DNA of 64,000 bases from the NCBI GenBank assembly GCA_964016885.1, contig OZ024748.1, positions 31,806,001-31,870,000 on the forward strand, in the 5' to 3' direction. Made by a program: the position numbers and the translations under genes. The DNA comes from Eledone cirrhosa. Its lineage: Eukaryota. The number at the start of each line of letters is the position of its first letter. The first letter of the stretch is position 1. The notes under the pieces were generated by a model that was not told the origin of the DNA, searched no databases, and was given only the letters and a program-made list of their open reading frames with translations. This document shows, one piece after another, positions 2,173 through 62,854 of the stretch.

Positions 2173-2345
2173 TGTATATATATATATATATTGTATATAT
2201 ATATTGTATATATATATTTTATATATACATTGTATATATATATATATTGTATATATATATTGTATATATACATTGTGTATATATATAGTATATATATATT
2301 GTATACATATTTATATATATATTGTATATCTAAATATATATATTG

Positions 2346-2391: not shown

Positions 2392-2790
2392 ATAAATATT
2401 TTAAATATATATATATTGTATATATATATATTTATTGTATATATATATATATTGTATATATTGTATATATATATATTTTATATATATATATATATATTGT
2501 ATATATATATATATTGTATATATATATATATATTGTATATAGATATATATTGTATATATATGTATATATTTTATATATATATTGTATATATATATATATA
2601 TATATATTGTATATATATATATATATATATATTGTATATATATATATATTGTATATATATATTGTATATATATATATATTGTATATATATATTGTATATA
2701 TATTGTATATATACATTGTGTATATATATAGTATATATATATATATATTGTATACGTATTTATATATATATTGTATATCTAAATATATAT

Positions 2791-10100: not shown

Positions 10101-10142
10101 TCAAGGCATGGTAAAAGGACAGTTTTTCTTCATCGACAGAAA
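6591..10142 (-). mobile_element. 5'-truncated RTE-clade LINE with 11-bp TSD (tgtgtatatat, 6580-6590 / 10143-10153)
   Basis: APE+RT ORF; 3' UTR with (GT)n, (ATT)n and poly-T ending ...gggggcagccatc; the satellite resumes in register on both sides. Confidence 0.9.
7111..10140 (-). CDS. RTE ORF: partial APE endonuclease, RT, three C-terminal C2H2 zinc fingers
   Basis: GDFNARVG, LDY, TDH (APE); QSGFR, FVDLTKAFDTV, GVKQG, LLYADD (RT); CxxC..H..H x3. The N-terminal YI part of the track ORF is satellite. Confidence 0.92.
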   Translation of the reverse strand, partial: SVDEEKLSFYHALKGVLRNIPQADKVIVLGDFNARVGRDFNTWNVIGRHGVGKCNSNGMLLLQMCEELDLCVTNTMFQQKNKFKTTWMHPASKEWHLLDYVLVRMRDRQDVQCVRVLRGAECWTDHRLVRAKVNLITKRKIRAPGVTLPKRLNAARLKDKNVKRTLEEEMQAADLGEDWPTLKKSVYDVGRRVLGLVQRKHQDWFNEKDVHIDDLLADRRRALSRYLTAKPQERNTLHEELRDVKSRVRRSLSQMKDQWWSEKAGEIQTASDCNNTKLLYSLLREVYGPSSSLVTPIRSRDGKELLRDSQGILRRWREHFDDLLNQPSVVSEDFLNLIPESPVKVALAEPPTLVEVAVAISKLNSGRSPGMDGIHAELLQYGGERLLQHLHSLFGRIWANESVPEDWRDAVMVVLYKGKGNRNDCGNYRGISLLSVVGKVLCRVLLDRLLTHIADCVLPESQSGFRVGRGTTDMIFSAGQLQEKCIEQGLDLYQVFVDLTKAFDTVNRDALWKVLQKLGCPDKFLALVRSFHDDMKAWVNVGGNMSEPISVKNGVKQGDIPAPTLFAIYFAMVFCIAFRNCEHGVYIRYRTSGSIFNIRRFAAKTKVFTSVIRDLLYADDCDLVAHTESDMQHILNVFSDACTALGLTVSLKKTVVMYQPAPGRQYTEPNIYVYGERLGVVDQFVYLGSTVNRYGNLDSEISLRIRKASDAFGKLERRLWGRRDICRRTKVKVYRACVLSCLLYACETWVTYRRHLKQLERFHQMCLRRIHGVHWRDHISDVEILESSMCDSIEALVLKQRLRWSGHLARMKDSRIPKQLFYGELVKGKRPPHKPKKRYKDSLKASLKDANISADTWENIAADRNKWRKTVYEGKVAFEASRIAHEKVKRDVRKGIAVALPDGEGPPMFLTCSVCARLCLSKAGLESHLRSHKVRPVVDYQAAVGDATHHACQTCGRECKSAGGLKRHAKVHELQPQPTIPSKCFGCRLCARHFRSLAGLKSHIRSQHC

Positions 10143-13261
<3,119 letters not shown>

Positions 13262-16182: not shown

Positions 16183-16310
16183 GAGACCCTCCATCTCAAC
16201 TCACCTTTTGAAAAGCAGAAGAACTGCGAAACCGGTAAAGGAACCAAATAAATATATATATTTTTAAAAAAAATAAGACTTCAGTTGCATTTTCGATTTC
16301 ATCTCTTTTT

Positions 16311-20212: not shown

Positions 20213-20566
20213 AAAAAGAGATGAAATCGAAAATGCAACTGAAGTCTTATTTTTTTAAAAAATATATATATTTATTTGGTTCCTTTACCGGTTTCGCAGT
20301 TCTTCTGCTTTTCAAAAGGTGAGTTGAGATGGAGGGTCTGTGGTTTTTCTCACATCTGAGAAAAACCACAGACCCTCCATCTCAACTCACCTTTTGAAAA
20401 GCAGAAGAACTGCGAAACCGGTAAAGGAACCAAATAAATATATATATTTTTAAAAAAAATAAGACTTCAGTTGCATTTTCGATTTCATCTCTTTTTCTTT
20501 ATACTTCCACTCGTGTAGGATACCTCGGTTATTTTTCATTTTGTAAAAAAAAACCTCACTTTCTAA
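20206..20566. repeat. Repeat X fold-back palindrome (centre ctca-catc-tgag at ~20355)
   Basis: ~150-bp inverted arms; the right arm continues to the X terminus cctcactttctaat. Confidence 0.8.
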
Positions 20567-22137: not shown

Positions 22138-22322
22138 AACTATATATATATGTGTTTGTCTATATTGTATCTGTATTATTTTTGACCGCCGGTCAGTCAA
22201 TGGCAACATTGAGGACCGAGTAAGTTAGATCGCAGATATATATATATAAAAGACAGCGAGAAGCGAAAACCAACCAAACAGTGAGTGTGTTCTGTTATTA
22301 ATTCTGGCAATATTACGCAAAT

Positions 22323-25300: not shown

Positions 25301-25952
25301 ACTATACAGGAGCAAATCATGGAATAGCTTAGATAGGGCTAGACATAAGATAGGGAAGGCCACATCATGGTACGACAACCAGAGATATCAGAGTGTCATG
25401 TTTGTGGACGCCACCCCTGGAGGGAAATTAGCTAACCAGTGTAGAAAGGCCCTGAGAAAGACCCACTTAAAAATAAAGGTGGTAGAAAAGCCAGGAACCA
25501 CCATAAAATCCCTGATCAGCAAAACCTACCCTTTTAAGAAAACCCACTGTACCAATAGGAAATGTATCATATGTAAGGTGAACCCCCGGATAAACTGTAA
25601 AACTAGAAACGTAGTCTATAGCATAAGATGTACAGAGGGTACTTGCAGAAACACGACAACAACATACATAGGTGAGACAGCTCGTAGCATAGGTGAAAGG
25701 ATAGACCAACACTGGGGGGAACTAAAAGGACGAAAAAACGGGTCAGTACTATACGAACATGCTAGACAACATCATGACGGTAACATAGACAACATAGAAA
25801 TTAGAATAATATCTAAACATAGGAATGACCCAGCAGATAGGCAAATCAGAGAGGCCAGTGAAATAGAAATTAGAAGACCAAAGCTAAACAGAAAGAATGA
25901 GTGGAACAACAACAACACCCAAACAAACAACACTGACCTAAGAGAAGTATAA
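22323..25952 (+). CDS. PLE polyprotein, 1209 aa: N-terminal domain, Asn-rich insert, RT, Cys linker, GIY-YIG
   Basis: TDKSG, RPVCGA, SMDVVSLYPSI, GAAIG, SRYVDD, LPVLD, CTNRKCIIC, VVY..YIGET.R, H..H, E. Confidence 0.93.
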   Translation: MTLPKYNNICFDTRFHIKNLAKLIHRRYGISLCQAERLLKDTVFCYIKTTITTEQIRFLKHCVSSKTYTTNISKQVNNLLLNKTQAERLKHTITVNMKRTTYTKVNALYRQKRINGKEIRNLITANERDDFMSVIRRETKYAQNECCRHFKKKLEWMNKKKLQERKIEYSQKYPDNIDNIRMSDVKLPEEFTNDHTVNIYGNTLISEQEQQILKLPPKFAIYKKINPMECKTELEKCFTKIRWNAKVNNNNNNNGSSNINNNSGYRNNSHNHNNGRKVRNSDNGNNTSDRQNNNNHNNNNNRNVNHRHSNSDHSSSNGNNTNNNNNNNHSGNNGNSTCSNINKNKKHNNSNNHNGRNSSNNNNNGEVNNNTSSNHNNNNINAKDRNNNNHHDNNNSNTHNYDDRNNDNPLEKLFFNPADKTYKMGNIYPTRLPFNKRVCIPQQIDDETEAQFTIARNKIRQVVDRYTMRQSRPEAQQLGIKPVEGLVSLKQRTRDGEVVCLPTDKSGRMSIDSMPNYIEAMQPHITNTSEVAQLTHDGREKILNAHMMMWTDILKPSRRTANNFQASNNGIPPLYGLRKDHKTVDDPTIGPPTRPVCGANIASNYRISYFLSMVIRPIIKMSPDVCESTEDLLSRISECNKNRSLSNCIIGSMDVVSLYPSINIDFAVKRCVEMIIESEVEFCDVDTDELGLLLRLTYDTDYLDSHDLRCFCPSRPIRGRPPTITSMAKKTPIGRWIGWTKAIRTPQNTDQVRKMVAHAIGASIKTTLKGHIFKFNEKIYTQNEGAAIGVSIAGDVANLFMVWWERRLKDLLNESSIDLIMYSRYVDDINIVIRTPPLESTNKFDLERSTMESIQQIANSIHQSITVTIDFPSKHPNNRLPVLDTELWINTIDERAQILHSHYAKPMASKYLILKNSAMSSSAKFNILIADLVRVMKNVSSMCDPTEMEGHIQHFINRMQFSGYNQRDRVRVYEGAMEKYKTLIELDMKGICPLYRSKSWNSLDRARHKIGKATSWYDNQRYQSVMFVDATPGGKLANQCRKALRKTHLKIKVVEKPGTTIKSLISKTYPFKKTHCTNRKCIICKVNPRINCKTRNVVYSIRCTEGTCRNTTTTYIGETARSIGERIDQHWGELKGRKNGSVLYEHARQHHDGNIDNIEIRIISKHRNDPADRQIREASEIEIRRPKLNRKNEWNNNNTQTNNTDLREV

Positions 25953-31578: not shown

Positions 31579-31629
31579 AGATTCTACAGGACTAGAACTG
31601 TTTCATTCATTAGAAATCATCAGGAATCT
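31579..31629 (-). ncRNA. Type I HHR (family D)
   Basis: agattc-CTGATGA-tttctaatgaat-GAAA-cag-ttctagtc-ctg-TA-gaatct. Confidence 0.85.
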
Positions 31630-34731: not shown

Positions 34732-36159
34732 TTAGCCATCGGGCTTTAACACTGGCTTAAAGTGTTTGAATGTTGCAAAGTTCTTGTGCATGCAGTTCGG
34801 GCAGTGTTCAGAGAGTTTGTTCAGTAGCGGGCCCTTGGCGAATAAAATTTCGTAGCTCTCTGAAATACAAAGGTCGCAGCCCTTGTGTCTTCCGTTGTAA
34901 GAGCGCGCTTTCTGGAGTATTTTCCAATTAAGCGTGAAGGGGGTGGAGTTCCTTTTGAGGTCCCAAACGTAGGAGGCGAGTGTTGTTTGATTTGATTTAT
35001 CCGGTCTTCTGAAGGAGTGGGTATGGGCATACCAACGGGTCTTAAAGTTGTTGGAGGTCATGCCGATGTAAGTTTTTTTGCAATCCTCGGTGCCTGAGAT
35101 GACATCGCATTTGTATACGATGTCATTTGTGAGGCATTTGTTTTCTAGTGGGCATGCTTCCTTATTTAGGCAATTACATAGAGCCCATGTCCGGGGATTG
35201 GTTTCGGAGGTGGTTGGCTTATTTAGTTTAGAGTTGTGGTTGGCTATATTCCTAGCTAGGTTAGGTGTGGTGGAGTAAGACAGTCTTATAGTGTTCTTAT
35301 TAAAGATGGTGTAGTACCTATGTTGTATGGGGAAGTGTAATTTCAGTAAAGTGAAGAAAATCCTAGCTATCGGAGTAGATACCTCTCTATTGAAGGGAGG
35401 GTTGTACCAGCTAATCTGCCTATGTCTATTCCTCCTCTGCAATTTTGCGGTGGTTTCTAGGTAAGTTATCTTATCTTTAAATCCGCTACGGGCTAGGGCG
35501 TCATTGTAGTAGGAGGCAGATGCATTAAAAATATCTTTGTTGGCGGAGAGGCCAGATATTCTAATAGAGACGCTTTTTACTAGGTTATCAGTAATGTTTT
35601 GGGGGTGGTTTGAATTAACATTAATATATTTAAGGGACTCGTTAGGTTTGTGGTACGGGTAATAGAGGGAAGTATCTAGGTCGAGAGTGACATCTAAGAA
35701 GTTGGCCCTAGTCAAATTAGAATCTATAGTTATACTAAATCCTAGATTAGAGAAGAAAGAGCTTAAGTTTTTCCGAAACCCATCGGTGGTTCTGGGGCTA
35801 ACCTTATGCAGGGCGAAGAGGCCGTCGTCTCGGTATAAACCTCCAGTTAGGCCGGTAAAGAGGTTCTTCAGGTTATGTAGGATGTACAGGCCCACAAGGT
35901 CGCTAATTTCAGCCGAGTCACTCGCCCCCATGCTAACGTCAAATGGGGTCTGAGATTTCTTGTTGATCCAGTAAGATCCATCGTGGTATAGAAAGGTCTT
36001 ACGAGCGTGGAGGATAATAACTTGCTCGGCATCGGTAATGGTGGTAAAATTCCTGGCAAAGTTAATTGCGTCCTTCAGGAGGGGCTCCGAGATAGAGGCA
36101 TAGTAGTTTTCTATGTCGAGTTGCAGGAAGCAGGTGTTTTTTTGTAGCACATCTTTGAA
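34732..36159 (-). CDS. PLE RT (from motif A) plus GIY-YIG, 5'-truncated, open frame
   Basis: [42 protein letters not shown]. Confidence 0.88.
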
Positions 36160-36161
36160 CC

Positions 36162-36282
36162 GTACACTATGTAGCACTATGTAGCACACTATGTAGCACA
36201 CTATGTAGCACACTATGTAGCACACTATGTAGCACATTTTTTGAACCGTACACTATGTTCAAGAAGAACATAGTGTACGGTT
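36162..36282. repeat. Junction filler: ~6 copies of (ac)actatgtagc plus a 17-bp-arm hairpin
   Basis: aaccgtacactatgttc-aagaa-gaacatagtgtacggtt; the repeat unit is built from both neighbouring element ends. Confidence 0.85.
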
Positions 36283-40848: not shown

Positions 40849-40899
40849 AGATTCCTGATGATTTCTAATGAATGAAATAGTTCTAGTCCTGTAGAATCT
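40849..40899 (+). ncRNA. Type I HHR (family D, inverted copy)
   Basis: As 31579-31629 but GAAAtag (U-G wobble). Confidence 0.8.
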
Positions 40900-42496: not shown

Positions 42497-43006
42497 ATTA
42501 GAATACTGGAGCGTGTTTGAGTCAAACACCCTCTTCGTATTATAGAAATGACAGTAAAAGGTATAGCTCAATGCTGTTAAACAGAGCCAAAAAATTAAGA
42601 GAGTAAAACAAAGAATCTTTTAATACATCAAAAGTTGTTATTAGCCGACAATGTTTCGTCCTATTAAGGACTCATCAGGACAATCAAAACAACAAGAGGT
42701 AATTTCGGCAGATACAAGCCAGAAACTCTGAAGAATATGGAGTGTACGTACACTAATGTCTTGCAAAGATATACGATAATAAAAATGAAAATAAAGATAA
42801 AAATAATAAAATTATAATAACTAAGGATGTAGATAACATTAAGAACTATATTACAAAGCCACCAACTTAAATCTAAACAAATTTGGTTATATAGAGCAGG
42901 AATTATATATAACACAATATAATACATTATAATAATAATATATTTATACCAACATTAAAATTCCAAATTAAAAATCAAAAGGTACAATATATACATGTAT
43001 ATATGT

Positions 43007-43545: not shown

Positions 43546-44415
43546 TGTACGTGTATTTGACTGTTATAGCGTATAATTTTTACATATTCTGGTATTTAGA
43601 GTTTGGCTATGTGTATACGAGAGTTTTGCGTCTGCGTGAGTATGCAGGTTCGTACGTATGGTGGGTGTGTGTATATGTGTACTTCTTGTTTTAGTTGACT
43701 TATGTCTCTGAACATTCGTGTATTTATTTGTAGGTATGTGTGTGCGCTTGTTATATACGTATTTATCTACTTATATACGTTTATATAATTATTTATTTAT
43801 TTGTACACAAGCATACACACATATTTATATGTGCGTGGTTTTGTATACCTATGGTAAGGTTTTGCGTATGCTTGTGTATGTACGTATCTGTTTGCGTGTA
43901 TGTATTTATTTGTTCCTATTACTTCTGTATTGTATTTATTTACTTTGTTCTTAACTCTGTAGCGGAGATTCATTTGGTCTCCTAGTTAGAATTTTTGTCT
44001 ACGACTTCTGCTATACCATTTACGTGGTTTTGTCTTTGCGTGCTATTGTTCTCCACGCTCCACATATGACTTATTATCTTCGTTTTTTCGTTCATTGCCA
44101 GAGAATGTCTCTATGCACCACCTAAGAGAACATTAGTCTACGACCTCTTTTATACCATAAACATGGTTCTGTCTTTGCGCGTAATTGTTTTTCACCGCTC
44201 CTATTAATGACGTATTATTCGTTTTTTCCCGTTCTTTGCCAGCGAACGTTTCCACGAACCAAAGTATCGTCTTCCTGTCTTCCTCCGGTTGCAACGTTTT
44301 TTGAAATATCCGGTTCTGCGTTTACAGATTGACTTTGTTAGTTTCCGAAGATCCCGTTAAGGGTGAAAGCAGCGATTCTTTGCTTAAACTTCAATCTGTT
44401 ATTTTAATAAATATT
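43546..44415 (+). mobile_element. Solo 3' UTR/pLTR of PLE family G
   Basis: Reverse-complement homolog of ~56612-57490. Confidence 0.85.
44340..44390 (+). ncRNA. HHR variant with CCGAAGA core (family G; CAGAAGA copies at 58877-58927 + and 56636-56686 -)
   Basis: agttt-CCGAAGA-t ccc gttaa ggg t-GAAA-gca-gcgattctt-tgc-TT-aaact. Confidence 0.6.
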
Positions 44416-44422
44416 GTATACT

Positions 44423-44512
<90 letters not shown>

Positions 44513-44527
44513 ATATATATATATATA

Positions 44528-45050
44528 GTTAAACTTGGGGAGGGTCATATTTGTGTAATATTGCCAGAATTAATAACAGAACACACTCACTGTTTGGTTG
44601 GTTTTCGCTTCTCGCTGTCTTTTATATCTGTAATCTAGCTTACTCGGTCCTCAATGTTGCCATTGACTGACCGACGGTCAAAAATAATACAGATACAATA
44701 TAGACACAAACACATATATATAGTTTACATAATTTACATAAATCTTTCGTTGCACATCTGCAACATCGTCAATGGTGTTATATCTTCCTCCTGTTGTGTT
44801 GTATGTCTACGCCATTTTTTATTCAGTCTGTCTATATATTTATTTATTTATTTGCTTTTTTGTTTATTTTATTTTGTCTTCTTTGCGCATGCGCTTGCGT
44901 GTGTGTATAGTGTTATGTTTGCTGTGTGACTAGTGTGTATAGTGTTATGTTTGCTGGGTGACTAGTGTGTGTTTATGTGCTTGTTCTTATTGTGCTTGTG
45001 TATGTATTTATTTATCTTATTTTATTTACTTATTTATACTTCTCTTAGGT
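44528..45050 (-). mobile_element. Diverged solo pLTR of family C
   Basis: Homologous to 20615-21135. Confidence 0.88.
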
Positions 45051-45125
45051 TATATATATATATATATATTGTACATATATATATTGTATTTATATATATA
45101 TTTATATTGTGTATATATATATTGT

Positions 45126-45196
<71 letters not shown>

Positions 45197-45426
45197 ATAT
45201 ATATATTGTATATATATATTGTATATATATATATTGTATATATATATTGTACATATATATCGTATATATATATTGTATATATATATTTTATATATATATT
45301 GTATATATATATTGTATATATATATTTTATATATATATTGTATATATATACTGTATATATATATAGTATATATATATATTGTATATATATATAGTATATA
45401 TATATATTGTATATATATATATATTG

Positions 45427-45462
<36 letters not shown>

Positions 45463-45639
45463 TTACAATTGTTTCCTCCAAACCGAGGTTTGGATTCCTC
45501 GGAGCAACTATTTATAACATACTTGACCTCCTTTTCAACCCAAGAGACACATTAAACATATGCGCATATTGATCAACAGTGGGGTGACATTCATCAAATG
45601 AAACAGCATGGCAATTTACATATAAAGTGTTACATGATA

Positions 45640-47681
45640 AAACTATGAAAAACTTAGAAGATATTAATATGGAAGGCTATAATATAGTATCCAAACTAGG
45701 GCTCCAGAGACATACACAACCTTACACCCTAAACCCCCCTAGATTCTCTCTGAAGGACTATAAGGTAGACTTCATTAGCAACCCCTCGATTAGACTAATC
45801 TGCCCCTCCAGGTCTGACATTGGCATTATCAGTAAAAAAATCCTAGACAAAATCATCCCACAGATTAAACACAAGATTTACCTTAAGCAATGGGGAAATA
45901 CGGGTGAAGTGATTGAATGGCTCAAAAATATCATAGATAACAAGGATAAAAAATTTATCCAATTTGATATCAACTCTTACTACACCTCTATTTCCCCTAT
46001 CTTACTAAATAAGGCACTTATAATGGCCATGGACAATAGTGACTTGACTAGACCCCAGATTGATGTCATACTTGCGGCCCGTAAAACAATAATCACCTTT
46101 GAGGACCAATTATGGACCCGCAAGGATACGCAAAACAACTTCGACATTACTATGGGGTCTAGTGACTCGGCGCAGGTCACTGATTTGGTTGGCCTATACT
46201 TACTTAACCTAATCCACAGGGAACTTCCGTACCTCAGCGGTGGTTTGTATCGCGATGGTGCACTCCTACTTATAGACTATAAAAAATTCAATATAGAAAG
46301 GACTAGAAAACTATTGCACAAAACATTCAAAAACTTTAACCTTAGTATTACCATGGACAAAAACACCAAAAACGTCAACTTCCTAGACGCCACACTCTAC
46401 TTAGACTCAATGATATATGCACCTTTCCACAAACCTAATGAAAAACTCATCTACGTAGATACCAAGTCTAACCACCCTAAATCTATATTGAACTCTATCT
46501 CTAAGGGAGTATCTAATAGAATCTCTAATCTATCCTATGACATAAACACATTTAACAATAACTCGCAGTATTATAATCAGGCATTAGCTAGATCAGGCCA
46601 TAATACAGGGATAGAGTTCCTACCTACAAAAACACATAGCTACAACATCATTTCACACAACATGTCCATGAGAAAATTTAATAATAAGAATAGCAACTGC
46701 ACACACACTAATAGGGATTGTAACAACAAGAGTAACCCGCACCACAGAAATGACCATAGGAACATTAAAGGAAACAAATCACCAGACATAAAAAACATAA
46801 AAAACAGAAATAGAAGAAGAAATAATACATTTTTCAACCCTCCTTTCAATTTAAACGTCTCTACCAACCTTCCTAGGGATTTCTTCTCACTACTAGATAA
46901 ACACTTCCCATCCGGCCACAGGTACCACGGCCTTTTAAACAAAAACACTATTAAGATCTCATACTCTACTACGCCCAACTTAGCATACCACATAGCTAGT
47001 ACAAATAAAAGAAAAATTAATTCTTACTTCCAACAAACTAAATCACAACGGTCGATAAACCTTCAAAATAACATTCAAAATGACAGTCAAAGTAACATTA
47101 TAACTAATAACCGTAATATCAATGGAAATAGTAGTAATAGCACTAGTGTAAACATTAACGCTGCGTACCACAACCCGCATAACCATAATCCTATAGCTAA
47201 CCTCCAAACTTCTACACAGCATAGTAACCGGCAGACTAGCACCCAGAGTAATTGTAACTGTAGATCAAGTAGAACCTGCCCTTTAGATAAAAAATGCTTA
47301 ACCAAGGATATCATATACTCATGTACAGTCACAACTAACAGCTCTTCTGAAACCTACATAGGCTCCATTTCTAACTGCTTCAAAACTAGATACAATTCGC
47401 ACCTCCACTCTTTCAAAAAACACAGTCTAGCCAACTCCACTTCACTATCTAGCTACATACACTATCTAAAAACTAAAAATAAAATATATACACTTAAATG
47501 GGAAGTGGTAGGTAGTGCAACATCGTACAAACCACCTGATAAATTTTGTAACCTCTGTCTACTAGAGACCCATACTATCCTATTCTCTAAACATAATCTC
47601 CTTAATAAAAAATCAGAAGTGTTCGCAAATTGCCAACACCGCTTCCGACACTCGTTCCAAAACTTTAAACCCTATATATAA
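45640..47681 (+). pseudogene. PLE RT plus GIY-YIG; open frame but catalytic YRDD changed to YRDG
   Basis: FIQFDINSYYTSI, ITMGS, GGLYRDG (the sister copy at 53.3 kb has YRDD), CNC..CP..C, IIY..YIG. Confidence 0.85.
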
Positions 47682-49220
47682 TAATGTCAGACTGGAACCG
47701 GCACCACCCCTAGCAATTAACATCAGTAGCACACCTTACACCTCACATCCACACCCATCTCTATACCCTAAAGATAATACTGACAGCATTTGAGTGCCAC
47801 CTACCCTGGGAATACCCCCTTGTACCTCTAATACTGATATCCCGACCGTGGACTACTTATTCTGCATTGCACAAATATAAGATTAGTATAAACTGGGGAC
47901 ACGGTACTCGTTGTGATAGCATAGTCCTGTGCATAGATTACCACCAAGAGATAGATTGATGATTAGATAGATAATCGTATTGTTAAGTGAGTATATACTG
48001 TAAGCGATCAGTTCATTGAATTATGAACGTAATCATCTTGATGTGGACTCCTTTAATACCTATTAATAGACTCCACTCTAGCTTGGAAATGAGATACATA
48101 ATTGATTTATATTTGAGACGGGGGTTGTCTATTACCTGATGGCCAGACTAGTGCGTTTATATGAGAGATCGGATCTCCGGACCATACCGAAGATTTACTG
48201 GAGATGCAGGCAAGCAATGACCCGGAGCCTACCGGGTGGCATATATAATAGTGGGACCATACCAGGTCCTACTGTTGTATTACATTTGCATGGAGCAGTG
48301 ACTTGAGAGTCCGACTCCTCTTATAGAACGTTCAGATATGACACCCCTAATTATTGGTTGGCAATCATCCTAGTATATACACCCTTGTACTTCTTAATGA
48401 ACAACTCTCTAACTTATAAATGGGTACCATACTCTAGATATTAGTTATAACTTCACATGATAGGCACGTATTTGAATCACCATTAATGTAGTTTAGCATA
48501 GTAATGTAACTAAAATAACTAGCTAGTTACCTCCCCTTACGCATTAATTCCCCTTAATCATTCAGGCACTTCCGGAATTTGGACAGCATGATATATTAAT
48601 TAAGAACGGACTGGATACCATTTATAGCTTGACTATATGCTGAACCACTGCGAATTATATGATAGACGCGTGTTCTCTATATATATATTGCGTCTCACGG
48701 ATTATGTGACTGGTGGTGTGAGCAAGGACAGTGGTACGACCTTGCCTACGATACAATAAGGTTTATAGTATGTTGAAGGTTTTTGATATTTTGGTGTTTC
48801 CCCGCATCCGAGACTGTATATCATACAGATGTATGAGAATTAATGACTTATTAATTCAGCCTATATTATTAGATTGATTGCCTGCTTCAACTGCCTGACC
48901 CTGCAAATATCATTCTGACGCACTCTAATCATGTATAGATAAGACAAGCGTGCATGCTACACGGGAGATTGCATCATGCACTGACTACTCTAAGCTTTCC
49001 TCTTGCTTTATCTTCATAGACTGCCTACGCTTCATGTTTATCTTTATTTTCACTCTTGCTTTTATTTTATTTTATTTTATTTTATTTTTATCATGTAACA
49101 CTTTATATGTAAATTGCCATGCTGTTTCATTTGATGAATGTCACCCCACTGTTGATCAATATGCGCATATGTTTTATGTGTCTCTTGGGTTGAAAAGGAG
49201 GTCAAGTATGTTATAAATAG

Positions 49221-49269
49221 TTGCTCCGAGGAATCCAAACCTCGGTTTGGAGGAAACAATTGTAAGCAA
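49221..49269 (+). ncRNA. HHR variant with CCGAGGA core (family H)
   Basis: ttgct-CCGAGGA-a tccaaac ctcg gtttgga g-GAAA-caattg-TA-agcaa; related copies at ~45463-45507 (-), ~51874-51921 (-), 56363-56410 and 59522-59570. Confidence 0.72.
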
Positions 49270-49470
49270 ATAAATGACTTAAACTGAACTTTGATTACTG
49301 TAATCTCTATATAACTGCTCTGTATAACAACTGATGTTATTACATTCAGCTATTTAACTTACTGGTAATAGGATAGTAATTAAAGACTATCTCTCACTAT
49401 TTAGGGTTTGTGTATATATAATATATTACCATCAAAGGTTTTATTGCATACATAACCATAAATAGTACCC

Positions 49471-49476
<6 letters not shown>

Positions 49477-49544
<68 letters not shown>

Positions 49545-49593
49545 ATATATATATATATATATATATATTGTATATATATATATATATATATAT

Positions 49594-49679
<86 letters not shown>

Positions 49680-49736
49680 ATATATATATATTGTATTTAT
49701 ATAAATATATATATATATTGTGTATATATATATTGT

Positions 49737-49819
<83 letters not shown>

Positions 49820-50022
49820 ATATATATATTGTATATATATATTGTATATATATATATTGTATATATATATTATACATATATATCGTATATATATATTGTA
49901 TATATATATTGTATATATATATTGTATATATATACTGTATATATATATAGTATATATATATATTGTATATATATATATATATTGTATATATATATATATT
50001 GTATATATATATATTGTATATA

Positions 50023-50112
<90 letters not shown>

Positions 50113-50126
50113 ATATATATATATTG

Positions 50127-50200
<74 letters not shown>

Positions 50201-50210
50201 ATATATATAT

Positions 50211-50272
<62 letters not shown>

Positions 50273-50283
50273 ATATATATATA
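49477..50283. repeat. (TA)n-TTG satellite, partly duplicating 45051-45445
   Basis: Shared landmarks ttgtacacacac, tatcgtata and tactgtata. Confidence 0.85.
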
Positions 50284-50689
50284 AATGAAGTCATTCCGTC
50301 GGAAAAGTCCAGGAAAAAAGAGTGTTCTATGTAGGTTACAGAGCTTAATAATTATGTAATAAACAACATAAGGCAATTATTTCACTTACCAGTGGTTTCT
50401 TAAAAGCAAACAAATTTTGCTTTCAAGCATCAGAATGAAAAAATCCTGCTGTATTTATTGACATTGGATTTTAAAAACAAAAATATAATCTGTATCTAAA
50501 TGAGGCTGGAAAAGGAAGAAGGAATGGAAAAATAAACACACATGCACACACACACAAACACATACACACACACATATATACATACACATATATACACACA
50601 CATACATACACACACACACATATATATGTATATATATACATACACATACATATACACATACATACATACACACATATATATCAATATCG

Positions 50690-50768
50690 ATACATACACA
50701 TACACACAAATACACAAACACGCACACACACACACACACACATGCATATATATATTTCTATACTTTTA

Positions 50769-50827
<59 letters not shown>

Positions 50828-51244
50828 CATACACACAATCATACATATATACACACGCACATACACACACATACATACATATATATATATATATACGCAT
50901 ACATACGCATGCACAAACATAGATATATGTACACACACCTACATACGCACACACACACATAATTATAAGAAAACATATAATAATAAAAATACCGTCACAT
51001 AAGAATAAAAATGAATAAAAAATTATTATAAAGTTGACAGCAATACAGGCAACAAATAAATGAATAAACACACGTTGTAAGCAATACACGCAATTACACA
51101 TACACATACATATGTAAAAATAAATACATACACACACACACAAACACATACATATACATATACACATACATACACATACACACAAATACACAAACACGCA
51201 CACACACACACACACACATGCATATATATATTTCTATACTTTTA

Positions 51245-51283
<39 letters not shown>

Positions 51284-51660
51284 CATACACACAATCATAC
51301 ATATATACACACGTACATACACACACATACATACATACATATATATATATACGCATACATACGCATGCACAAACATAGATATATGTACACACACCTACAT
51401 ACGCACACACACACATAATTATAAGAAAACATATAATAATAAAAATACCGTCACATAAGAATAAAAATGAATAAAAAATTATTATAAAGTTGACAGCAAT
51501 ACAGGCAACAAATAAATGAATAAACACACGTTGTAAGCAATACACGCAATTACACATACACATACATATGTAAAAATAAATACATACACACACACACAAA
51601 CACATACATATACATATACACATACATACACATACACATATACATATACACACACACACA
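50690..51660. repeat. Tandem duplication (~460-475 bp) of a CA/TA-rich unit
   Basis: catgcatata..tacttttaat at 50741/51217; accgtcacat at 50991/51447. Confidence 0.85.
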
Positions 51661-52359
51661 TATATACATAGTATTAAGGATACTGTTTATGGTTATGTAT
51701 ATACTAAAACTTTTTATAGTTATATATATTTTAAACCCTAAACAGTGAAAGACAGTAATTTATTACTACCTTATTACCAGTAAGATAAATAGCTCAATGT
51801 AATAACATCAGTTATTCTACAGAGCAGTTATATAGAAATCACATGAATCAAAGTTCTGTTCAAACCATTTATTAGCTTACAATTGTTGCGTCCAAACCGA
51901 GGTTTGGATTATTCGGAGCAATTTTTCAATGATTGTTTACATACATGACCTCCTTTCCAACACAAGAGACATCCAGAAACATATGTATATATTGATGCAC
52001 AGTGGGGTGACATCCATTATAATATTTTAGCATGGTAATTTACATTCAAAAATTAAAATCATATTAAAAGAAAATTAAAACAAAATTAAAGTTAAAATAC
52101 AACATCGGCAGTTTACGAAGATAATGCAAGAGGATAGTTTTAAGTAGTTAGTGTATGCAATAGTTACACGTGGGGCATGCACGTGTGTCTTATTTATATA
52201 AGATTAATGTGCGGCAAGGTGTTATATGCAATTAAGCACTTTAAGCGGGTAAACAAGAGTATTATGGGGGTTGTACTGGTAAAGTATTTTTTATGTATGA
52301 TAAGAAGCTTGTGTGCAGAGAAATATTAAAAATGAGAAGCATAATAATGTTATTGATCG

Positions 52360-54720
52360 ACAGTGTAAACTCCTTTATCAATAGTGTGAGATGGAGGACA
52401 TTCTATTATGATAAAAACAAATCTAACAAGGTTAATAATACTAACAAATTCGACTCCTTCGGCTTTAAAACCTTTAGAAGCCCCCCTCACAACACACTAC
52501 TAAACTCCTTTGAAAATGACCTAATAAAACTAGTTAAGAACATTAAATACAAAAAGCAACATAATGAAAACAACACCTTCTTCAACAAACTTAACACCTC
52601 TATTAATGAATTCAAAACTAGTAATAAAATTATTGTACATGCGGACAAAACTAATAACATATACAGCCTAGATTATAATACATATAGAAAGTTTATATAT
52701 AATGAACTACATAAAAGCTACAAGAAAACTACTATGAAAAACTTATATGGAAGGCTATAATATAGTGTCCAAACTAGGACTTCAGAGACATACACAACTA
52801 TATAACCCAAAACCCCCTAGATTCTCTCTGAAGGACCATAAGGAGGACTTCATTAGCAACCCCTCGATTAGACTTATCAGCCCTTCCAAGTCTGACATTG
52901 GCATTATCAGTAAGAACATTTTAGATAAAATCATCCCACAGATTAAACACAAGATACACCTTAAACAATGGGGGAAATACGGGCGAAGTTATTGAATGGT
53001 TCAAAGATATCAAGGATAACAAGGATAAAAAAATTCTTAAATTTGATATCAATTCATACTACACCTCTATTTCCCCTATCCTATTAAATAAGGCACTAAT
53101 CATGGCCATGGACAATAGTGACCTGACTAGACCCCAGATTGATGTCATTCTTGCGGCCCGTAAAACCGTAATCACCTTTGAAGACTAATTATGGACCCGC
53201 AAGGATACGCAGAACAACTTCGACATAACCATGGGATCTAGTGACTCGGCGCAGGTCACTGATTTGGTCGGCCTATATTTACTTAACGAAATCCATAAGG
53301 ACCTTCCATACCTCAACGGTGGTTTGTACCGCGATGATGCACTTATAGACTATAAAAAATTCAATATAGAAAGAACTAGAAAACTATTGCACAAGACATT
53401 CAAAAACTTTAACCTTAGTATCACCATAGACAAAAACACTAAAATCGTTAACTTCCTAGACGCCATCCTCTACCTAGACTCAAAGATATATACACCTTTC
53501 CATAAACCTAACGAAAAACTGATTTACGTAGATACCAAGTCTAACCACCCTAGATCAATATTAAACTCTATCTCTAAGGGAGTATCCAATAGAATCTCTA
53601 ATCTATCCTATGACGTAAAGATATTTAGCAAAAACTCGCAATATTATAATCAGGCATTAGCTAGATCAGGCCATAATATAGAGGTCGAGTTCCTACCTAC
53701 AAAAACACATAGCTACAACATTATTTCGCACAATATGTCCATGAGGAAATTTAGTAATAAGAATAGCAACCACACCCACACTAATACGAAGGATGCCAAC
53801 AAACGTAACCCACACCACAGAAGTTACCATAGTACCATAAAAGGAAACAACTCATCAGACATAAAAAACAAAAGTAGAAGAAGAAATAATACATTTTTCA
53901 ACCCTCTTTTCAATCTAAACGTCTCTACCAACCTACCTAAGGCTTTCTTCTCACTCCTAGATAAAAACTTCCCATCTGACCACAAGTACCATAGCTTTTT
54001 AAACAAAAATACAATTAAAATCTCCTACTCTACTACGCCTAACATAGCATACCACATAGCTAGAAGCAATAAAAGAAAAATTAATTCTTACTTCCAACAA
54101 ACTAAATCACAACAGGCGGTAAACCTTCAAAATAACATTATATCAACTAACCTTGATAACAATAGTTATAATAGTAATAGCACTAGTGTAAGCAATAACG
54201 CTGGGAACGACAACCCCATAACTATAATCTTACAGCTACCATCCAGACTTCTACACAACATGATAACCGGCAGACTAACACCCAGAATAATTGTAACTGT
54301 AGATCTAATAGAACCTGCCCTTTAGATAAAACATGCTTAATCAAGGATATCATATACTCATGCACCGTCACAACTAGCAACTCTTCTGAAACCTATATAA
54401 ACACTACTTCAAACTGCTTCAAAACCAGATACAATTCGCACCTCCACTCTTTCAAAAAACACAGTCTAGCCAACTTCACTTCACTATCTAGCTACATACA
54501 CTATCTAAAAACTAAAAATAGATCTTATACACTTAAATGGGAAGTGATAGGTAAGGCGACATCGTACAAACCACCTAATAAATTTTGTAACCTCTGTCTA
54601 CTAGAGACCCATACTATTATCTTCTCAAACCATAACCTCCTTAATAAAAAATCAGAAGTGTTCGCGTCATGCCAAGCACCGCTTCCGACACTCCTTCCAA
54701 AACTTTAAACCCAAGATATA
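52360..54720 (+). pseudogene. Frameshifted PLE RT plus GIY-YIG
   Basis: [17 protein letters not shown]; split over ORFs 52293, 52747 and 53231 with an in-frame TAA near 53186. Confidence 0.88.
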
Positions 54721-55631
54721 GCAACGTCAGACGTGAACCCATCACCACTTCTAGCAACACACCTCAAGGGCACACATTACACCACAACTCCACACTCAAT
54801 GATCCACCCTATCTTAACACAATTAGTGACATCTATCTAGAACCTTTTACCCTAGAAATATCCCCATGTACATCTACTTTTAGTATGATTGCCTTCAATT
54901 ACTTAGACTACATTACACCACTATATAATTAAATGTAAACTTTTAACACTGAATTGTTTGTGCTATTGTTGTTCTATGTATGGATTGCCATCATTGGATA
55001 AATAGAAGATTAATTTATTAACATAAAAGAGCTATATAACCTATATGTTGAGTACAATGAATTATGTACAAGTGGTATATGAGTTATACATACATGTATG
55101 ACATACATGATAGACAGATTAATGACATTGTAAGTGAGAATTGCTCTCTGGTCTACCCTAGAGATATTTAACTTTGCCATACAATCAGACATGCGCTGAC
55201 CCAGAGCTTACCATGGGTTGTATATAGACGTAGTTCTAATAAAACCCTGCCAGGTTCTGTGGGTAGACTACATTTACAAAGATCATTGATTTGAGATCTG
55301 ACTCTTCATGTCGAATATTCAGTGATGGCACGCTATGATAGAGGGTAATCATCCTAATATGGATACCTTTAGTACTTCTTGATAGAGTAGACTGTAATTT
55401 AAAGATAGGATACTTAAATTTAGAAACTGTTCATAACCATATATGTAAGGGACTTTTGGGACACCGTTTAATGTACATTGGAATAATAAATTTAGTTATA
55501 GAAATCAGCTAGTTACCTCCCCTCATGCATTAACTCCCCTTAATCACACACATACTTCCGGAAAATAAAACGATGTAAACAAAAACAACCTGCACTTAAA
55601 ATTGGATTAAAGAACAACATGCTGTAATAAT

Positions 55632-55819
55632 TGTTTCTACTTTTGGCACAAGGCCCGCAATTACTCAGTGTATTACTGGTAGTTTATTTTATCGACCCCG
55701 TAAGGATGAAAGGCAAAGTTAACCTCGGTGGGATTTGAACTCAGAATAGCAAGGGACGTAACTCTATGCGTCAAAGCATGGCGTCCGACCTTCTACCGAT
55801 ACTGCCAATCCTCCGCCCT
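55632..55819 (-). mobile_element. tRNA-derived SINE with 16-bp TSD aacatgctgtaataat (55616-55631 / 55820-55835)
   Basis: A-box-like tggcagtatcgg, B-box gagttcaaatcc, central gcctttcatcc..ggggtcgataaaat (Meta-domain-like, from memory). Confidence 0.85.
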
Positions 55820-56452
55820 AACATGCTGTAATAATCTAACCTAATATATCAAGATTCAAATACTGAATCATCGTGAATTATGTGAAGGACATATAATCTA
55901 ATAATTACGTTTCCTGGATTGTGAAAATGGTGGTGTATACGATAACCATAACATTATTTTGCTTCTCATTTTTAATATTTCTCTGCACACGAGCTTCTTT
56001 ATCATACATAAAAAATACTTTACCAGTACAACCCCCATTTAAAGTGCTTGTATTGCATATAACACCTTGCCGCACGTTAATCTTATATAAATAAGACACA
56101 CGTGCATGCCCCACGTGTAACTATTGCATACACTAACTACTTAAAACTATCCTCTTGCATGATCTTCGTAAACTGCCGATGTTGTATTTTAACTTTAATG
56201 TTGTTTTAATTTTATTTTAATATGATTTTAATTTTTGAATGTAAATTGCCATGCTAAAATATTATAATGGATGTCACCCCACTGTGCATCGATATATACA
56301 TATGTTTCTGGATGTCTATTGTGTTGGAAAGGAGGTCATGTATGTAAACAATCATTGAAAAATTGCACCGAATAATCCAAACCTCGGTTAGGACGAAACA
56401 ATTGTAAGCTAATAAATGGTTTGAACAGAACTTTGATTCATGTGATTTCTAC

Positions 56453-56526
<74 letters not shown>

Positions 56527-56530
<4 letters not shown>

Positions 56531-58950
56531 ATAATAATAAAATTGAAGACTAAAATCCAAAGAGGGCTCGATAAGGAAAATATATATCAAATATATAAGA
56601 ACCGTAGAGCAAATATTTATTAAAATAACAGATTAAATTTAAGCAAAGAATCGCTGCTTTCACCCTTAACGGGATCTTCTGAAACTAACAAAGTCAATCT
56701 GTAAACGCAGAACTGGATATTTCAAAAAACGTTGCAACCGGAGGAAGACAGGAAGACGATACTTTGGTTCGTGGTAACGTTCGCTGGCAAAGAACGGGAA
56801 AAAACGAATAATACGTCATTAATAGGAGCGGTGAAAAACAATTACGCGCAAAGACAAAACCACGTTTATGGTATAAAAGAGGTCGTAGACTAATGTTCTC
56901 TTAGGTGGTGCATAGAGACGTTCTCTGGCAATGAACGAAAAAACGAAGATAATAAGTCATATGTGGAGCGTGGAGAACAATAGCACGCAAAGACAAAACC
57001 ACGTAAATGGTATAGCAGAAATCGTAGACTAAAATTCTAACTAGGAGACCAAATGAATGTCCGCTACAGAGTTAAGAACAAAGTAAATAAATACAATACA
57101 GAAGTAATAGAAACAAATAAATACATACACGCAAACAGATACGTACATACACAAGCATACGCAAAACCTTACCATGGGTATACAAAACGACGCACATATA
57201 AATATGTGTGTGTGTGTGTATGCTTGTGTACAAATAAATACATAATTATATAAACGTATATAAGTAAATAAATACGTATATAACAAGCGCACACGCATAC
57301 CTACATAGAAATACACGAATGTTCGGAGACGTAAGTCAACTAAAACAAGAAGTACACATATACACACACACACACCATACGTACGAACCTGCACACTCAC
57401 GCGGACGCAAAACTCCCGTATACACATAGCCAAACCCTAAATACCAGAATATGTAAAAATTATACGCTATAACAGTCAAATATACGTACGAGAAGGTATA
57501 TATACCTTCACAAAACATACGGGTAATATATACTTACCTATGCAAATAAGTAAAGGAATAAACAAAACATATACTTAGCTCCCACATCAAGACGTAAAAT
57601 ATCCACGTATAGATCGTGCTATCCGTTAGGGTATAACGTGGGGCCGAAATACAGGAAAGTTTTGTGCAATTTATGTTTACAAGCCGAAATTGCCTCAGAT
57701 TTTTTGTTTAAGATGTGGTCTGTAGCGTAGAGTATTTCCAGGGCCTCAGCGGCGCAGAGGTCACATGGTCTTTTATTTCCGTTATACGATCTAGCCCTAG
57801 CTAGGATCTCCCAGTGTAACTTATATTGGATGTGGTTGTCTTTTAGACTCCAGATATAAGCTGAAAGTGACGTCATATTCCTTCTTAGAGGGAAACGAAA
57901 AGAATGGGTATGCATGTAAAGACGCTGCTTGAAACTATTGGCGGTTAACCCTATGTAGGCCCTACGGCACGTGGGTCTTACAACCTTACATTTGTAGACA
58001 ATGTTACTAGAGAGGCATTTCCCGGATAGGGGGCAATCAACCCGATTCCTACAATTACAGTTAGTACTAACTACAGGGTTGCACGTGTTCCTACGGCTAG
58101 GTAGTTTAGCTAAATTTGAAGCTGTGATGTTATGTGCAAGGTTAGGAGTCGTAGAGTAAGAAATTTTAATAGTATTTCTATTAAAAATGTTACTATATTT
58201 ATGTGTAGGGGGAAAATGCTTCGTAATAAGGGAAAGAAAGATCTTAGCTAATGGTGTGGCCACCTCCATATTATATGGTGGGTTAAACCAACAAATGCGA
58301 CGGGATCTATTTCTTCTAGGTCTATTTTCGTACTCTGTATATGCTACCTTATCGACAAGTCCACTTCGAGCAAGAGCTTCATTGTAATAAGTGGAATGGT
58401 CGTTGAAAATGCGCTCGTTGGTGGAAAGAAGGGAAAGCCTCAACGAAACGTTTCTTACCAGGTTCTTGGTTATGCTGGCAGGATGGTTGGAATGCTTACT
58501 TATGTAATGAAGCGTATCATTCGGCTTTCTATACGGGTAATACAACCCATTCAATAAATTGAGGGTAACGTCGAGGTAATTAACGACCGAGAGATTGGCC
58601 TCAACCTGTATAGAGAGGTTGAAGCCTTTAAAGAAGGCTGTGAGTTCTTTTCTGAACCTGTCGCAAGCACAGGTCCGCACTTAGTCATGGTCAAAAGACC
58701 ATCGTCACGGTACGCGCGTAATTGTTTTTCACCGCTCCTATTAATGACGTATTATTCGTTTTTTCCCGTTCTTTGCCAGCGAACGTTACCACGAACCAAA
58801 GTATCGTCTTCCTGTCTTCCTCCGGTTGCAACGTTTTTTTAAATATCCAGTTCTGCGTTTACAGATTGACTTTGTTAGTTTCAGAAGATCCCGTTAAGGG
58901 TGAAAGCAGCGATTCTTTGCTTAAACTTTAATCTGTTATTTTAATAAATA
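56527..58950 (-). mobile_element. 5'-truncated PLE family G with inverted pLTR 58714-58950
   Basis: 58714-58950 is the reverse complement of ~56612-56850. Confidence 0.87.
57619..58712 (-). pseudogene. PLE ORF from YRDD to GIY-YIG, with a frameshift just after YRDD
   Basis: taccgtgacgat (YRDD) at 58701-58712; VNYLDV, WFNPP, CNC..CP..C, IVY..YIG. Confidence 0.87.
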
Positions 58951-59169
58951 TATATATATATATATACATACATACACTCACGCACACATATCTATATATA
59001 AAAGAAAATACATAAATATTATATATATATAAAAAAATAAAAAGAATGAGAAAATGGTGGTGGATACGAAAGCCATAACTCTCTTTTTCTTCTCCTTTCT
59101 ATTTCTATTTTTCTGCACACATACTTTTTTATTATATACAAAAAATACCTTACCACTACAACCTCCATA

Positions 59170-59770
59170 ATACTCTTACCTACCCACGTAAAGTGCTTGT
59201 ATTACATGTAACACCCTGCCACACAATAATCATATATAAATGAGACACACGTAACTAACGCATACAATAACTACTACATCTGCCCAACAAACTATCCTCT
59301 TGCATTATCTATGTTAACTGCCGAATGTATTTTAATTTTAATTTTAATTTTGCTTTAATTTTGTTTTAATTTTGATATTGATTTTGACTTTGAATTTGAA
59401 TTGCTATACGGAAATAATATAATATAATATATGTCACTCCACTGTACATCAATATATACATATGTATCTGTATGTCTCTTGCGTTGGAAAGGAGGTAAAT
59501 TATGTGTACAAACATTGAAAAATGGTCCGAAGATTCCAAGCCTAGGTTTGGATGAAACAATTGAAGTGAATAAATGCTTTGAACATAGCTTTGATTCTTG
59601 TGAATTCTATATAACTGCTCTGTAGAACAACTTATGTTATTATATTGAGCTATTTATCTTACTGGTAATAAGGTAGTAATAAATTACTAACATTCACTGT
59701 TTAGGGTTTAATATATATATAACTATAAAAAGCTTTAGTATATACATAACCATAAAGAGTGTCCTTAATA
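59170..59770 (+). mobile_element. Solo pLTR related to family H with decayed CCGAAGA HHR
   Basis: Homologous to 56020-56450 and to the reverse complement of 51670-52240; ends ccttaata. Confidence 0.8.
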
Positions 59771-60117: not shown

Positions 60118-60773
60118 CAGTCTCAATAGAAAATCTAAACTCTGACACCTGAACTCTGACAGCTGGCCATATTCACTGAACCAGAACATTTCTCCCAATC
60201 CCTTTTCCCTTGACCACTATCTCTCCATTGTCATAACATTCACTATAAAGACTACAGAATAGTTTTCCAAATAAGGGCGCAAAAATGTAATGAAAACTTG
60301 TTCACGTGACAGCCAAGTTTCATTTATAACCAACCAAAAAAAAGCCTTCGTGAGCCTCATTTTTTCAAGTAAAAAGAAATTCAAACACTCATATATGAAA
60401 AAACAACCTGTGACAACCCCCCCTCTCTTATTTGAAGAACTATTGTAACGCGAACTGGCGCGAAATTTATTATAATTATTGACAAACCAATCAAATTACT
60501 TCTCGAAAAACCTGGCCTTCGAGCCACTTTTTCAATATAAAACAAGTAACATTTAGAGACCAACCAGATGTGAGAAAAACCACAGACCCTCCATCTTCAA
60601 CTCACCTTTTGAAAAGCAGAAGAACTGCGAAACCGGTAAAGGAACCAAATAAATATATATATTTTTTTTTTAAATAAGACTTCAGTTGCATTTTCGATTT
60701 CATCCCTTTTTCTTTATACTTCCACTCGTGTAGGACACCTCGGTTATTTTTCATTTTGTAAAAAAAACCTCAC

Positions 60774-61486: not shown

Positions 61487-61562
<76 letters not shown>
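60781..61562. repeat. (TA)n-TTG satellite
   Basis: Direct sequence inspection. Confidence 0.9.
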
Positions 61563-61567
<5 letters not shown>

Positions 61568-61773
61568 TAAGTTAAAAATGTACATCCACATATGTATACT
61601 GAAATACTAGTATGCATATGAATACACACACGTGTACATATGTAGATGTACCGAGTTTTTCACTGGACACTTTACTGTGAGTGTCCAGCTATTCTGTATG
61701 TAAACCGGTTTTTAGAGTCATACTGGTTTTCGAGGAAACACCTTTCCTCTATTCTCCAGAAAGCCAGACAAGG

Positions 61774-61818
61774 AATATTGGACTAGTTTCGATGTTGTTA
61801 CATCTCATCAGCAATATT
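61774..61818 (-). ncRNA. Type I HHR, copy 1
   Basis: aatattg-CTGATGA-gatgt aaca acatc-GAAA-ctag-TC-caatatt. Confidence 0.88.
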
Positions 61819-62239
61819 TACCTATCTTCCGGCCTTTCTAGAGAATCGTAAAAGCACATATCGTTATATGCTTTTTCTATGAAAATTAGTAGTGGGCAGA
61901 CTAATTTGCATAGAGCGTGAGTACGTACCGGTTCAGCGGAGACGATAAAAACAAATAACGAAACGAAATTAAATTTCGTTTCGTTTGTAACTCACTTTTG
62001 TATGACTGACGCTTAAACAATTAAGTTAAAAATGTACATCCACATATGTATACTGAAATACTAGTATGCATATGAATACACACACGTGTACATATGTAGA
62101 TGTACCGAGTTTTTCACTGGACACTTTACTGTGAGTGTCCAGCTATTCTGTATGTAAACACACAGACAAACCGGTTTTTAGAGTCATACTGGTTTTCGAG
62201 GATAAACCTTTCCTCTATTCTCCAGAAAGCCAGACAAGG

Positions 62240-62284
62240 AATATTGGACTAGTTTCGATGTTGTTACATCTCATCAGCAATATT
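62240..62284 (-). ncRNA. Type I HHR, copy 2
   Basis: Identical motif 466 nt from copy 1. Confidence 0.88.
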
Positions 62285-62365
62285 TACCTATCTTCCGGCC
62301 TTTCTAGAGAATCGTAAAAGCACATATCGTTATATGCTTTCTCTAGAAAGGCCGGAAGATAGGTA

Positions 62366-62410
62366 AATATTGCTGATGAGATGTAACAACATCGAAACTA
62401 GTCCAATATT
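62366..62410 (+). ncRNA. Type I HHR, copy 3 (inverted arm)
   Basis: CTGATGA at 62373, GAAA at 62394. Confidence 0.88.
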
Positions 62411-62698
62411 CCTTGTCTGGCTTTCTGGAGAATAGAGGAAAGGTTTATCCTCGAAAACCAGTATGACTCTAAAAACCGGTTTGTCTGTGTGTTTACATAC
62501 AGAATAGCTGGACACTCACAGTAAAGTGTCCAGTGAAAAACTCGGTACATCTACATATGTACACGTGTGTGTATTCATATGCATACTAGTATTTCAGTAT
62601 ACATATGTGGATGTACATTTTTAACTTAATTGTTTAAGCGTCAGTCATACAAAAGTGAGTTACAAACGAAACGAAATTTAATTTCGTTTCGTTATTTG

Positions 62699-62854
<156 letters not shown>

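Follow-up and report, generated by a model that had tools for sequence, protein, structure and literature searches.

Elements and hammerhead motifs of the locus

The window analysed here, a 64,000-nt stretch of the Eledone cirrhosa genome (contig OZ024748.1, positions 31,806,001 to 31,870,000), is AT-rich animal sequence dense in TA runs and in Penelope-like elements (PLEs). Our subject is eight hammerhead ribozyme motifs of these elements in which the U at position 4 (U4) of the conserved CUGA turn is replaced. The sequences reported in the initial annotation were all found at their places, with C3 at 44345 (+) and 59527 (+) in the CCGAAGA cores, at 45502 (-) and 49226 (+) in the CCGAGGA cores, at 51916 (-) and 56368 (+) in the CCGAATA cores, and at 56681 (-) and 58882 (+) in the CAGAAGA cores. 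They belong to five insertions (G1, G2, G3, H1, and H2) of two Hydra-clade PLE families, G and H, and cannot be counted as independent observations, since three of them, at 45502, 51916, and 58882, are the 5' inverted duplicates of the motifs at 49226 (G1), 56368 (G2), and 56681 (H2), respectively. Such duplicates are typical of PLEs (PMC8557442).

Family H is represented by H1 (43547..44415, +), a 5'-truncated copy consisting of the 3' UTR and end only and 96% identical to the 3' region of H2, and by H2. The open frame of H2 (353 aa, 57619..58680, -) is 5'-truncated and free of stops, and encodes the end of the reverse transcriptase (RT), a CxCx5C linker, and an endonuclease (EN). The type I hammerhead at the 3' end of H2 (56628..56702, -) has the core CAGAAGA (U4A) and a 1-nt loss in the 3' P1 strand. 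Its 5' inverted duplicate (58861..58936, +; C3 at 58882, position 4 at 58883) has the same core and corresponds to the family majority; it comprises a 5-bp P1, a 7-nt bulge, a 9-bp distal P1, a P2 of U.U plus 3 bp, a 5-bp P3, and a CUU site. The type I hammerhead of H1 (44324..44399, +; C3 at 44345) has the core CCGAAGA, and its C4 is an outlier to the A4 of the family. The H copies are 96-98% alike and run 25 nt past the cleavage site to (TA)n; consensus folding of the three near-identical copies revealed no covariation.

In family G, the 5'-truncated open frame of G1 (697 aa, 45588..47681, +) encodes a Hydra-clade RT, with the motif YRDG, and an EN of GIY-YIG type at its C-terminal end. The G1 hammerhead (49221..49269, +; core CCGAGGA, GUA site), the best preserved of the family, is a minimal type I motif with a 5-bp P1, a near-palindromic P2, and a palindromic P3, while the 5' inverted duplicate of the G1 end (45463..45667, -) lacks the 3' P1 strand. 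The coding region of G2 (52245..54708, +) is split over several frames and contains the motifs RWR, ADKT, YRDD, and CxCx5C. Its hammerhead remnant (56363..56411, +) combines U4C with G8U, which breaks the C3-G8 pair, and has a P2 mismatch; its 5' inverted duplicate (51663..52232, -) carries the same core with A13C in addition. The truncated copy G3 ends in a hammerhead remnant (59522..59569, +; position 4 at 59528) in which U16.1 is deleted. G1 and G2 are 87% identical in DNA sequence and G3 is about 78% alike; G genomic copies extend about 200 nt beyond the cleavage site. Species-named homologues of the G protein were proteins of Argonauta hians only. In G1, the core sequence CCGAGG and the CCTCGG of the P2 loop (49226-49245) are complementary, a match that G3 lacks; C4 of G1 could stem from a quasi-palindrome template switch between the two.

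A third family, F, serves as a comparator. Its hammerhead (31579..31629, -; inverted copy at 40849-40899, +) has the canonical core CTGATGA and the same plan as that of H, with U.U plus 3 bp in P2 and a long P3. The F open frame (34732..36252, -), a sister of H, is linked to the 31623 hammerhead via a TA/CA simple repeat and about 0.7 kb of unique 3' sequence.

Assignment to the Hydra clade and the state of the core

The description of Hydra-clade PLEs (Craig et al. 2021, PMC8557442) lists RW[KR], DKT, CxCx5C, CxxC and CxH motifs around the E and N of the EN, (TA)n insertion, 5' inverted copies, and a 3'-end type I hammerhead. The CxCx5C linker and the CxxC and CxH motifs are present in the G1, H2, and F proteins. 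The motifs of an RT with a C-terminal GIY-YIG EN in one ORF are present as well; with Pfam, GIY-YIG was matched weakly in F and not at all in G1 or H2. G2 has RWR and ADKT, which correspond to the RWK/DKT motifs of the clade, in a region that is missing in the truncated H2 and G1, and both H and G ends adjoin TA runs, as expected of (TA)n insertion. The U.U at 10.1/11.1 and the U17 of H are common in the clade; as they occur in 31/73 and 12/73 relatives, respectively, we did not retain them as signs of decay. The canonical hammerhead, however, is found in the sister family F and not in G or H. Canonical hammerheads are called universal in that description, with CUGA in 26/26 table rows, including Hydra-1_oBim, whereas G has CCGA and H has CAGA, and the H site is CUU instead of GUH. 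With its long P2, its short P1, and a P3 that is palindromic and tiny, G resembles the minimal PLE hammerheads of Cervera and De la Pena (2014, PMC4209133), which have been proposed to work as slow dimers; the family-level core change given in the consulted text of that paper is U3-A8, with no change of position 4.

The motifs of G1, H1, and the inverted duplicate of H2 satisfy a type I hammerhead descriptor (three helices, ends in stem I), while decayed copies fail it. Applied with a non-U position 4 to the 37.7 kb of the window that are not microsatellite, this descriptor gave 4 matches, as against 0 in every one of 100 shuffles. A covariance model built from 45 relatives, all with U4, matched H1 (E 0.023), the inverted duplicate of H2 (E 0.038), and H2 (E 0.19), but G1 only at E 0.8; it gave no match at 45502, 51916, or 59527 and only a partial one at 56387-56406. 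None of the eight motifs was matched by Rfam hammerhead models at E up to 1, which indicates that CUGA-based searches miss whole families; the only Rfam matches in the window, both below the gathering score, lie at 61758-62426 (HH9) and 42640-42684.

In both families the U4 of the CUGA turn is absent, with C in G and A in H. The remaining conserved core (C3-G8, G5, A6, A9, G12-A14, A15.1-U16.1, and H17) is intact in the H copies, in G1, and in the majority of G3 reads, and is broken in G2, in its inverted duplicate, and in the G3 window copy itself. The description of all these folds as otherwise well formed thus does not hold for the motifs at 45502, 51916, 56368, and 59527. The additional lesions (G8U, A13C, and the loss of U16.1) would represent ordinary decay of single copies, and CCGAATA, which had been listed among natural core variants, is better read as decay (G8U) added to C4. 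Judged by their sequences, the G and H motifs are hammerhead homologues with a variant core and not canonical members.

The letter at position 4 in public reads

Four of 17 listed public sequencing runs were selected and aligned to positions 58760-59660, which hold one H and one G motif. The deepest H contigs from two other organisms carry CAGAAGA: X6 record 19 (58875-58934, depth 126.5) has no differences from the window, X5 record 10 (depth 136.7) has one, at 58840, and X6 record 17 has three, every one upstream. Runs X5 and X6 (organisms B and C) come from one study, and their summed contig depth does not equal copy number. Diverged H subfamilies are represented by X5 record 9 (10 differences/116 nt) and X6 record 18 (17/139 nt). 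Contigs of these subfamilies stop at 58904, as do the main ones, and X6 record 19 starts at 58875; this contig-graph overlap suggests that H subfamilies 9-12% apart share the 30-mer holding A4. In the case of G, C4 is kept and U16.1 is present in X5 record 16, whose 5 differences are all among the listed variant rows and leave 59528 unchanged. In X5 and X6, loose ends have the cores CCGATGA and CCGAAGA from two more G subfamilies, in which C4 is kept and N7 varies, and C4 is present in 3/3 window insertions, which are 78-87% alike. Among the best 40 of 129 variant rows from the raw reads of organism A (X15), there is none at 58883 or 59528, that is, no other letter at about half of the reads. 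At 58875-58883 the depth works out at about 5,000 reads, and hence the reads are not clipped there.

Family H appears young and abundant: of 9878 X1 contigs aligned over the full window, 2970 are 99% or more alike, and H has 25-100 times the depth of the G3 hammerhead. The contrast between 12 high-share variants in 58780-58874 and none in 58875-58934 was considered as proof of selection and dropped, since depth doubles in the latter region and dilutes the shares.

According to the reads and the window copies, the position-4 changes are family traits, C4 being the majority state in G and A4 in H. This bears out the claim of the initial annotation that the loss of U4 is unlikely to be a single decay mutation, and a family consensus of CTGA, the outcome named as contrary to it, was seen for neither family. 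The claim of U4C in two families has to be amended, as the H majority letter is A and C occurs in only 1/3 of the window H motifs. Plain post-insertion decay, in which the family consensus would be CUGA and the window copies outliers, draws some plausibility from the other core lesions of G copies and from one relative contig with two variant motifs that are possibly decayed. However, in two other organisms the deepest contigs read A at this position for H and C for G, and at neither place is U the majority letter of the raw reads, which makes such decay highly improbable.

Another explanation is that the variant copies are non-autonomous or crippled and spread in trans, by means of protein from a minority CUGA master or from a sister family such as F. 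A full-length H ORF was not found among proteins of 619-2000 aa, G1 has YRDG, G2 is frameshifted, and alleles below 50% would fall outside the best 40 of 129 variant rows. On the other hand, H2 has an open frame of 353 codons in which the EN motifs are intact, in the same insertion as the A4 motif, and the A4 RNA itself would have been copied many times even so. We therefore regard spread in trans as decidedly improbable.

Relatives and the ancestral state

Relatives identified by protein alignment comprise 78 metagenome loci (best 80 of 422 confirmed) and 15 loci from genome bins. A canonical sense-strand hammerhead is present in 68 of these 93 loci (73 distinct). Covariance-model matches (94 in the 68 loci) and 6 of 17 motifs picked from the other 25 loci (one of E 0.3), with partial and weak ones dropped, gave 75 distinct motifs, of which 72 have U4 and one each has C, G, and A, each variant from one contig; the 3/75 is a lower bound, the model having been trained on U4 motifs. 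U4 is kept within the window as well, by families F, E (with U3-A8), 37807, 42678, and 61811. The H motif has a G15.2-C16.2 pair, while 72/73 relatives have G16.2.

In a quick, unfinished RT tree with rows of unequal length, built without named Hydra, Neptune, and Nematis references, H falls into one group with F and the 63071 fragment (SH-aLRT 99), apart from G. Protein identity is 52% between H and F and 37-40% between H and G in longer matches. Since the sister family F keeps CUGA and H groups with F and not with G, the position-4 changes seem to have arisen independently; since F and 72/75 relatives keep U4, it was probably ancestral and lost twice.

Exact-pattern scans returned no H motif in viral contigs or metagenomes and no G motif in viral contigs, and no relatives were found in viral contigs. 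Fifteen loci (L079-L093) are Hydra-type PLEs with hammerheads on contigs binned with bacterial genomes, most probably through contamination by DNA of a host animal.

Proposed attenuation of the ribozymes and alternative explanations

C4 in G and A4 in H have likely arisen independently in the master element of each family. C4 is predicted to slow cutting and A4 to nearly stop it. Tolerance of the changes is likely to come from the copying of RNA that would have been left uncut at the hammerhead site, and each change would have been fixed in a master lineage that kept amplifying; the helices may be kept as the 3' end is perhaps also recognised by the element protein. We consider it probable that the G and H motifs are attenuated 3'-end ribozymes, slowed in G and nearly silent in H, which are tolerated since cutting is not limiting. 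With 25 nt in H and about 200 nt in G beyond the cleavage site, the genomic copies point to a template that was either uncut or rejoined at this place, and as both families spread despite likely slowed or stopped cutting, fast cutting is likely not needed for their multiplication. Of the two suggestions of the initial annotation, a tolerated or a rate-tuned variant, the former is supported by the continued amplification of both families.

A comparable case is the Anolis PLE PAc (Frangieh et al. 2024), for which PMC11167929 describes uncut RNA as the main insertion substrate and the hammerhead as dispensable in vitro, with equal insertion by the PLE protein when the hammerhead was mutated to a dead form. 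The mechanism is proposed by analogy for G and H. PAc belongs to the Poseidon clade, and its core is canonical with engineered mutants, whereas G and H are natural families with an impaired core. Naiad PLEs spread without hammerheads (PMC8557442).

U4C itself is an active natural variant in viroids and viroid-like RNAs. It lowers activity in vitro and supports viroid infection (PMC3088659), while another source cites the viroid case as leaving cleavage ability unaffected; the CCGA hammerhead of zeta virus ZV1 cleaves. These RNA replicons share with family G the same change, shown to cleave, but they are circular and cleavage-dependent, their motif is of type III in the zeta and betaviroid cases, and none has U4A, while that of G is of type I and belongs to a retrotransposon in the genome. 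A viroid study by Ambros and Flores from 1998 reportedly found U4A to be without significant cleavage. PMC11014351 yielded no information on position 4, and PMC4105743 only general U-turn context. We found no literature report of a retrotransposon family with a position-4 change or of a natural U4A family, although supplements of Lunse et al. 2017 and of Cervera could hold cases. The stronger result, missed in the initial annotation, is that an apparently young and abundant family has A as its majority letter at position 4.

Adaptive tuning of the cutting rate would mean that slower cutting was favoured, as it keeps the 3' end on the template, and that position 4 was selected away from U. The same position is changed in two independent lineages of one genome, and C4 persists although it lies in a CpG, where C to U reversion is an easy mutation in methylated DNA. 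In folding predictions, A4 in H raises the probability of a core-core helix from 0.02 to 0.32 and C4 in G1 that of a core-loop helix from 0.38 to 0.83, so that in both cases the variant letter is predicted to shift the balance to folds in which the core is hidden; these values leave out tertiary contacts and dimers and are a weak hint, and the G1 alternative helix relies on loop sequence absent from G3. The change is rare in relatives (3/75), and at 13-22% divergence one base common to three G lineages requires no selection. Selection for slower cutting is accordingly unlikely.

Conversely, the variants might be fully active, with H compensated by its long distal P1 and an extra G-C pair at the P3 base and G by dimerisation through its palindromic P2 and P3. 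The H motif appears, from contig ends, to be unchanged between subfamilies 9-12% different upstream, and its G15.2-C16.2 pair, a two-sided change, implies selection on the fold; tertiary contacts have been proposed to offset core variants (PMC3088659). Nevertheless, the 3' end could be conserved for recognition by the protein or through recombination, mutants of the CUGA turn were of low activity and were not rescued within two mutations in a mutational scan (PMC9901934), and the hammerhead fold lies 2.1 kcal/mol above the predicted minimum in H as compared to 0.3 in F. Full activity is improbable on this evidence. A bolder version for H alone, quite unlikely in our view, would be that its CAGA hammerhead works by means of a rebuilt turn, which would make it the first natural U4A hammerhead. 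Its long, bulged stem I and the additional pair in stem III would provide the rescue, and the ribozyme would set how much of a very abundant retrotransposon RNA is cut and how much is left uncut.

Several points weigh against attenuation as the preferred reading. U4 is kept in 72/75 relative motifs and in 26/26 published Hydra rows, and such strong conservation indicates that cleavage usually matters in the clade. The two-sided stem III change in H (G15.2-C16.2) suggests continued selection on the fold, and the in vitro dispensability result (PMC11167929) comes from a different clade, Poseidon. The best match of a full-length H protein search reached 47% identity among proteins of 619-2000 aa, and the full-length protein was not among them, which bears on the autonomy of H. 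The raw reads of organism A are restriction site-associated (RAD-seq) and sample copies unevenly. The best 40 of 129 variant rows each have at least 49.7% share, with ranking apparently by share, so a U4 minority of 10-49% is compatible with the reads and might include active masters.

Other hammerheads and elements

Two relative loci, L058 (4045-4086, +) and L052 (2596-2637, +), have Hydra-type hammerheads with a swapped G3-C8 pair (core GTGATCA) right before their (TA)n end, and L052 has a second copy of most of this hammerhead, 97% identical, near its 5' end. The G3-C8 swap is known as a laboratory rescue mutant (PMC9901934, PMC11167929). The locus L064 carries an otherwise well-formed U4G hammerhead (CGGAAGA; 2302-2345, +) 3' of the ORF in a unit-length contig, which may represent another family-level position-4 change. 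L067 contains CAGTGGA (U4A, A6U) at 2166-2224 (+) and CCGATGA (U4C) at 2421-2470 (-), possibly decayed copies.

In the window, U3-A8 hammerheads (TTGAAAA) occur at 16202-16243 (+), 20280-20321 (-), 20388-20429 (+), and 60603-60644 (+) in a repeat that flanks a 785-aa ORF at 16714; a second motif, CTGATGA with poor stems, lies at 16434 and 20033. Matches to CCGAGGT at 20528 and 60743 were ruled out because of weak stems, the real hammerhead of the repeat being the nearby U3-A8 motif. A hammerhead-like motif at 50433 (-), with a 7-bp P1, a P2 of about 11 bp, and the core CTGATGC (A9C), has one copy in the window. Three canonical hammerheads in direct and inverted orientation (367-nt perfect inverted repeat) are located at 61560-62705 and give the sole HH9 matches. 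The window also contains a long LINE-type endonuclease-RT open frame (7111-11247, -) and a 1216-aa ORF of a PLE of another clade (22302-25952, +), partial 3'-end copies of which lie at 20.6-21.8 kb and 44.5-45.0 kb.

Significance

Whether PLEs need hammerhead cutting is a question to which one in vitro study answers no, yet the motifs are nearly invariant in nature. The sister families F (CUGA) and H (CAGA), with similar stems in one genome, form a natural test pair. If the H ribozyme is inactive, a high copy number would have been reached with a dead ribozyme whose fold is kept; if it is active, the rule for the hammerhead core would need widening. In either case, searches based on CUGA overlook entire families.

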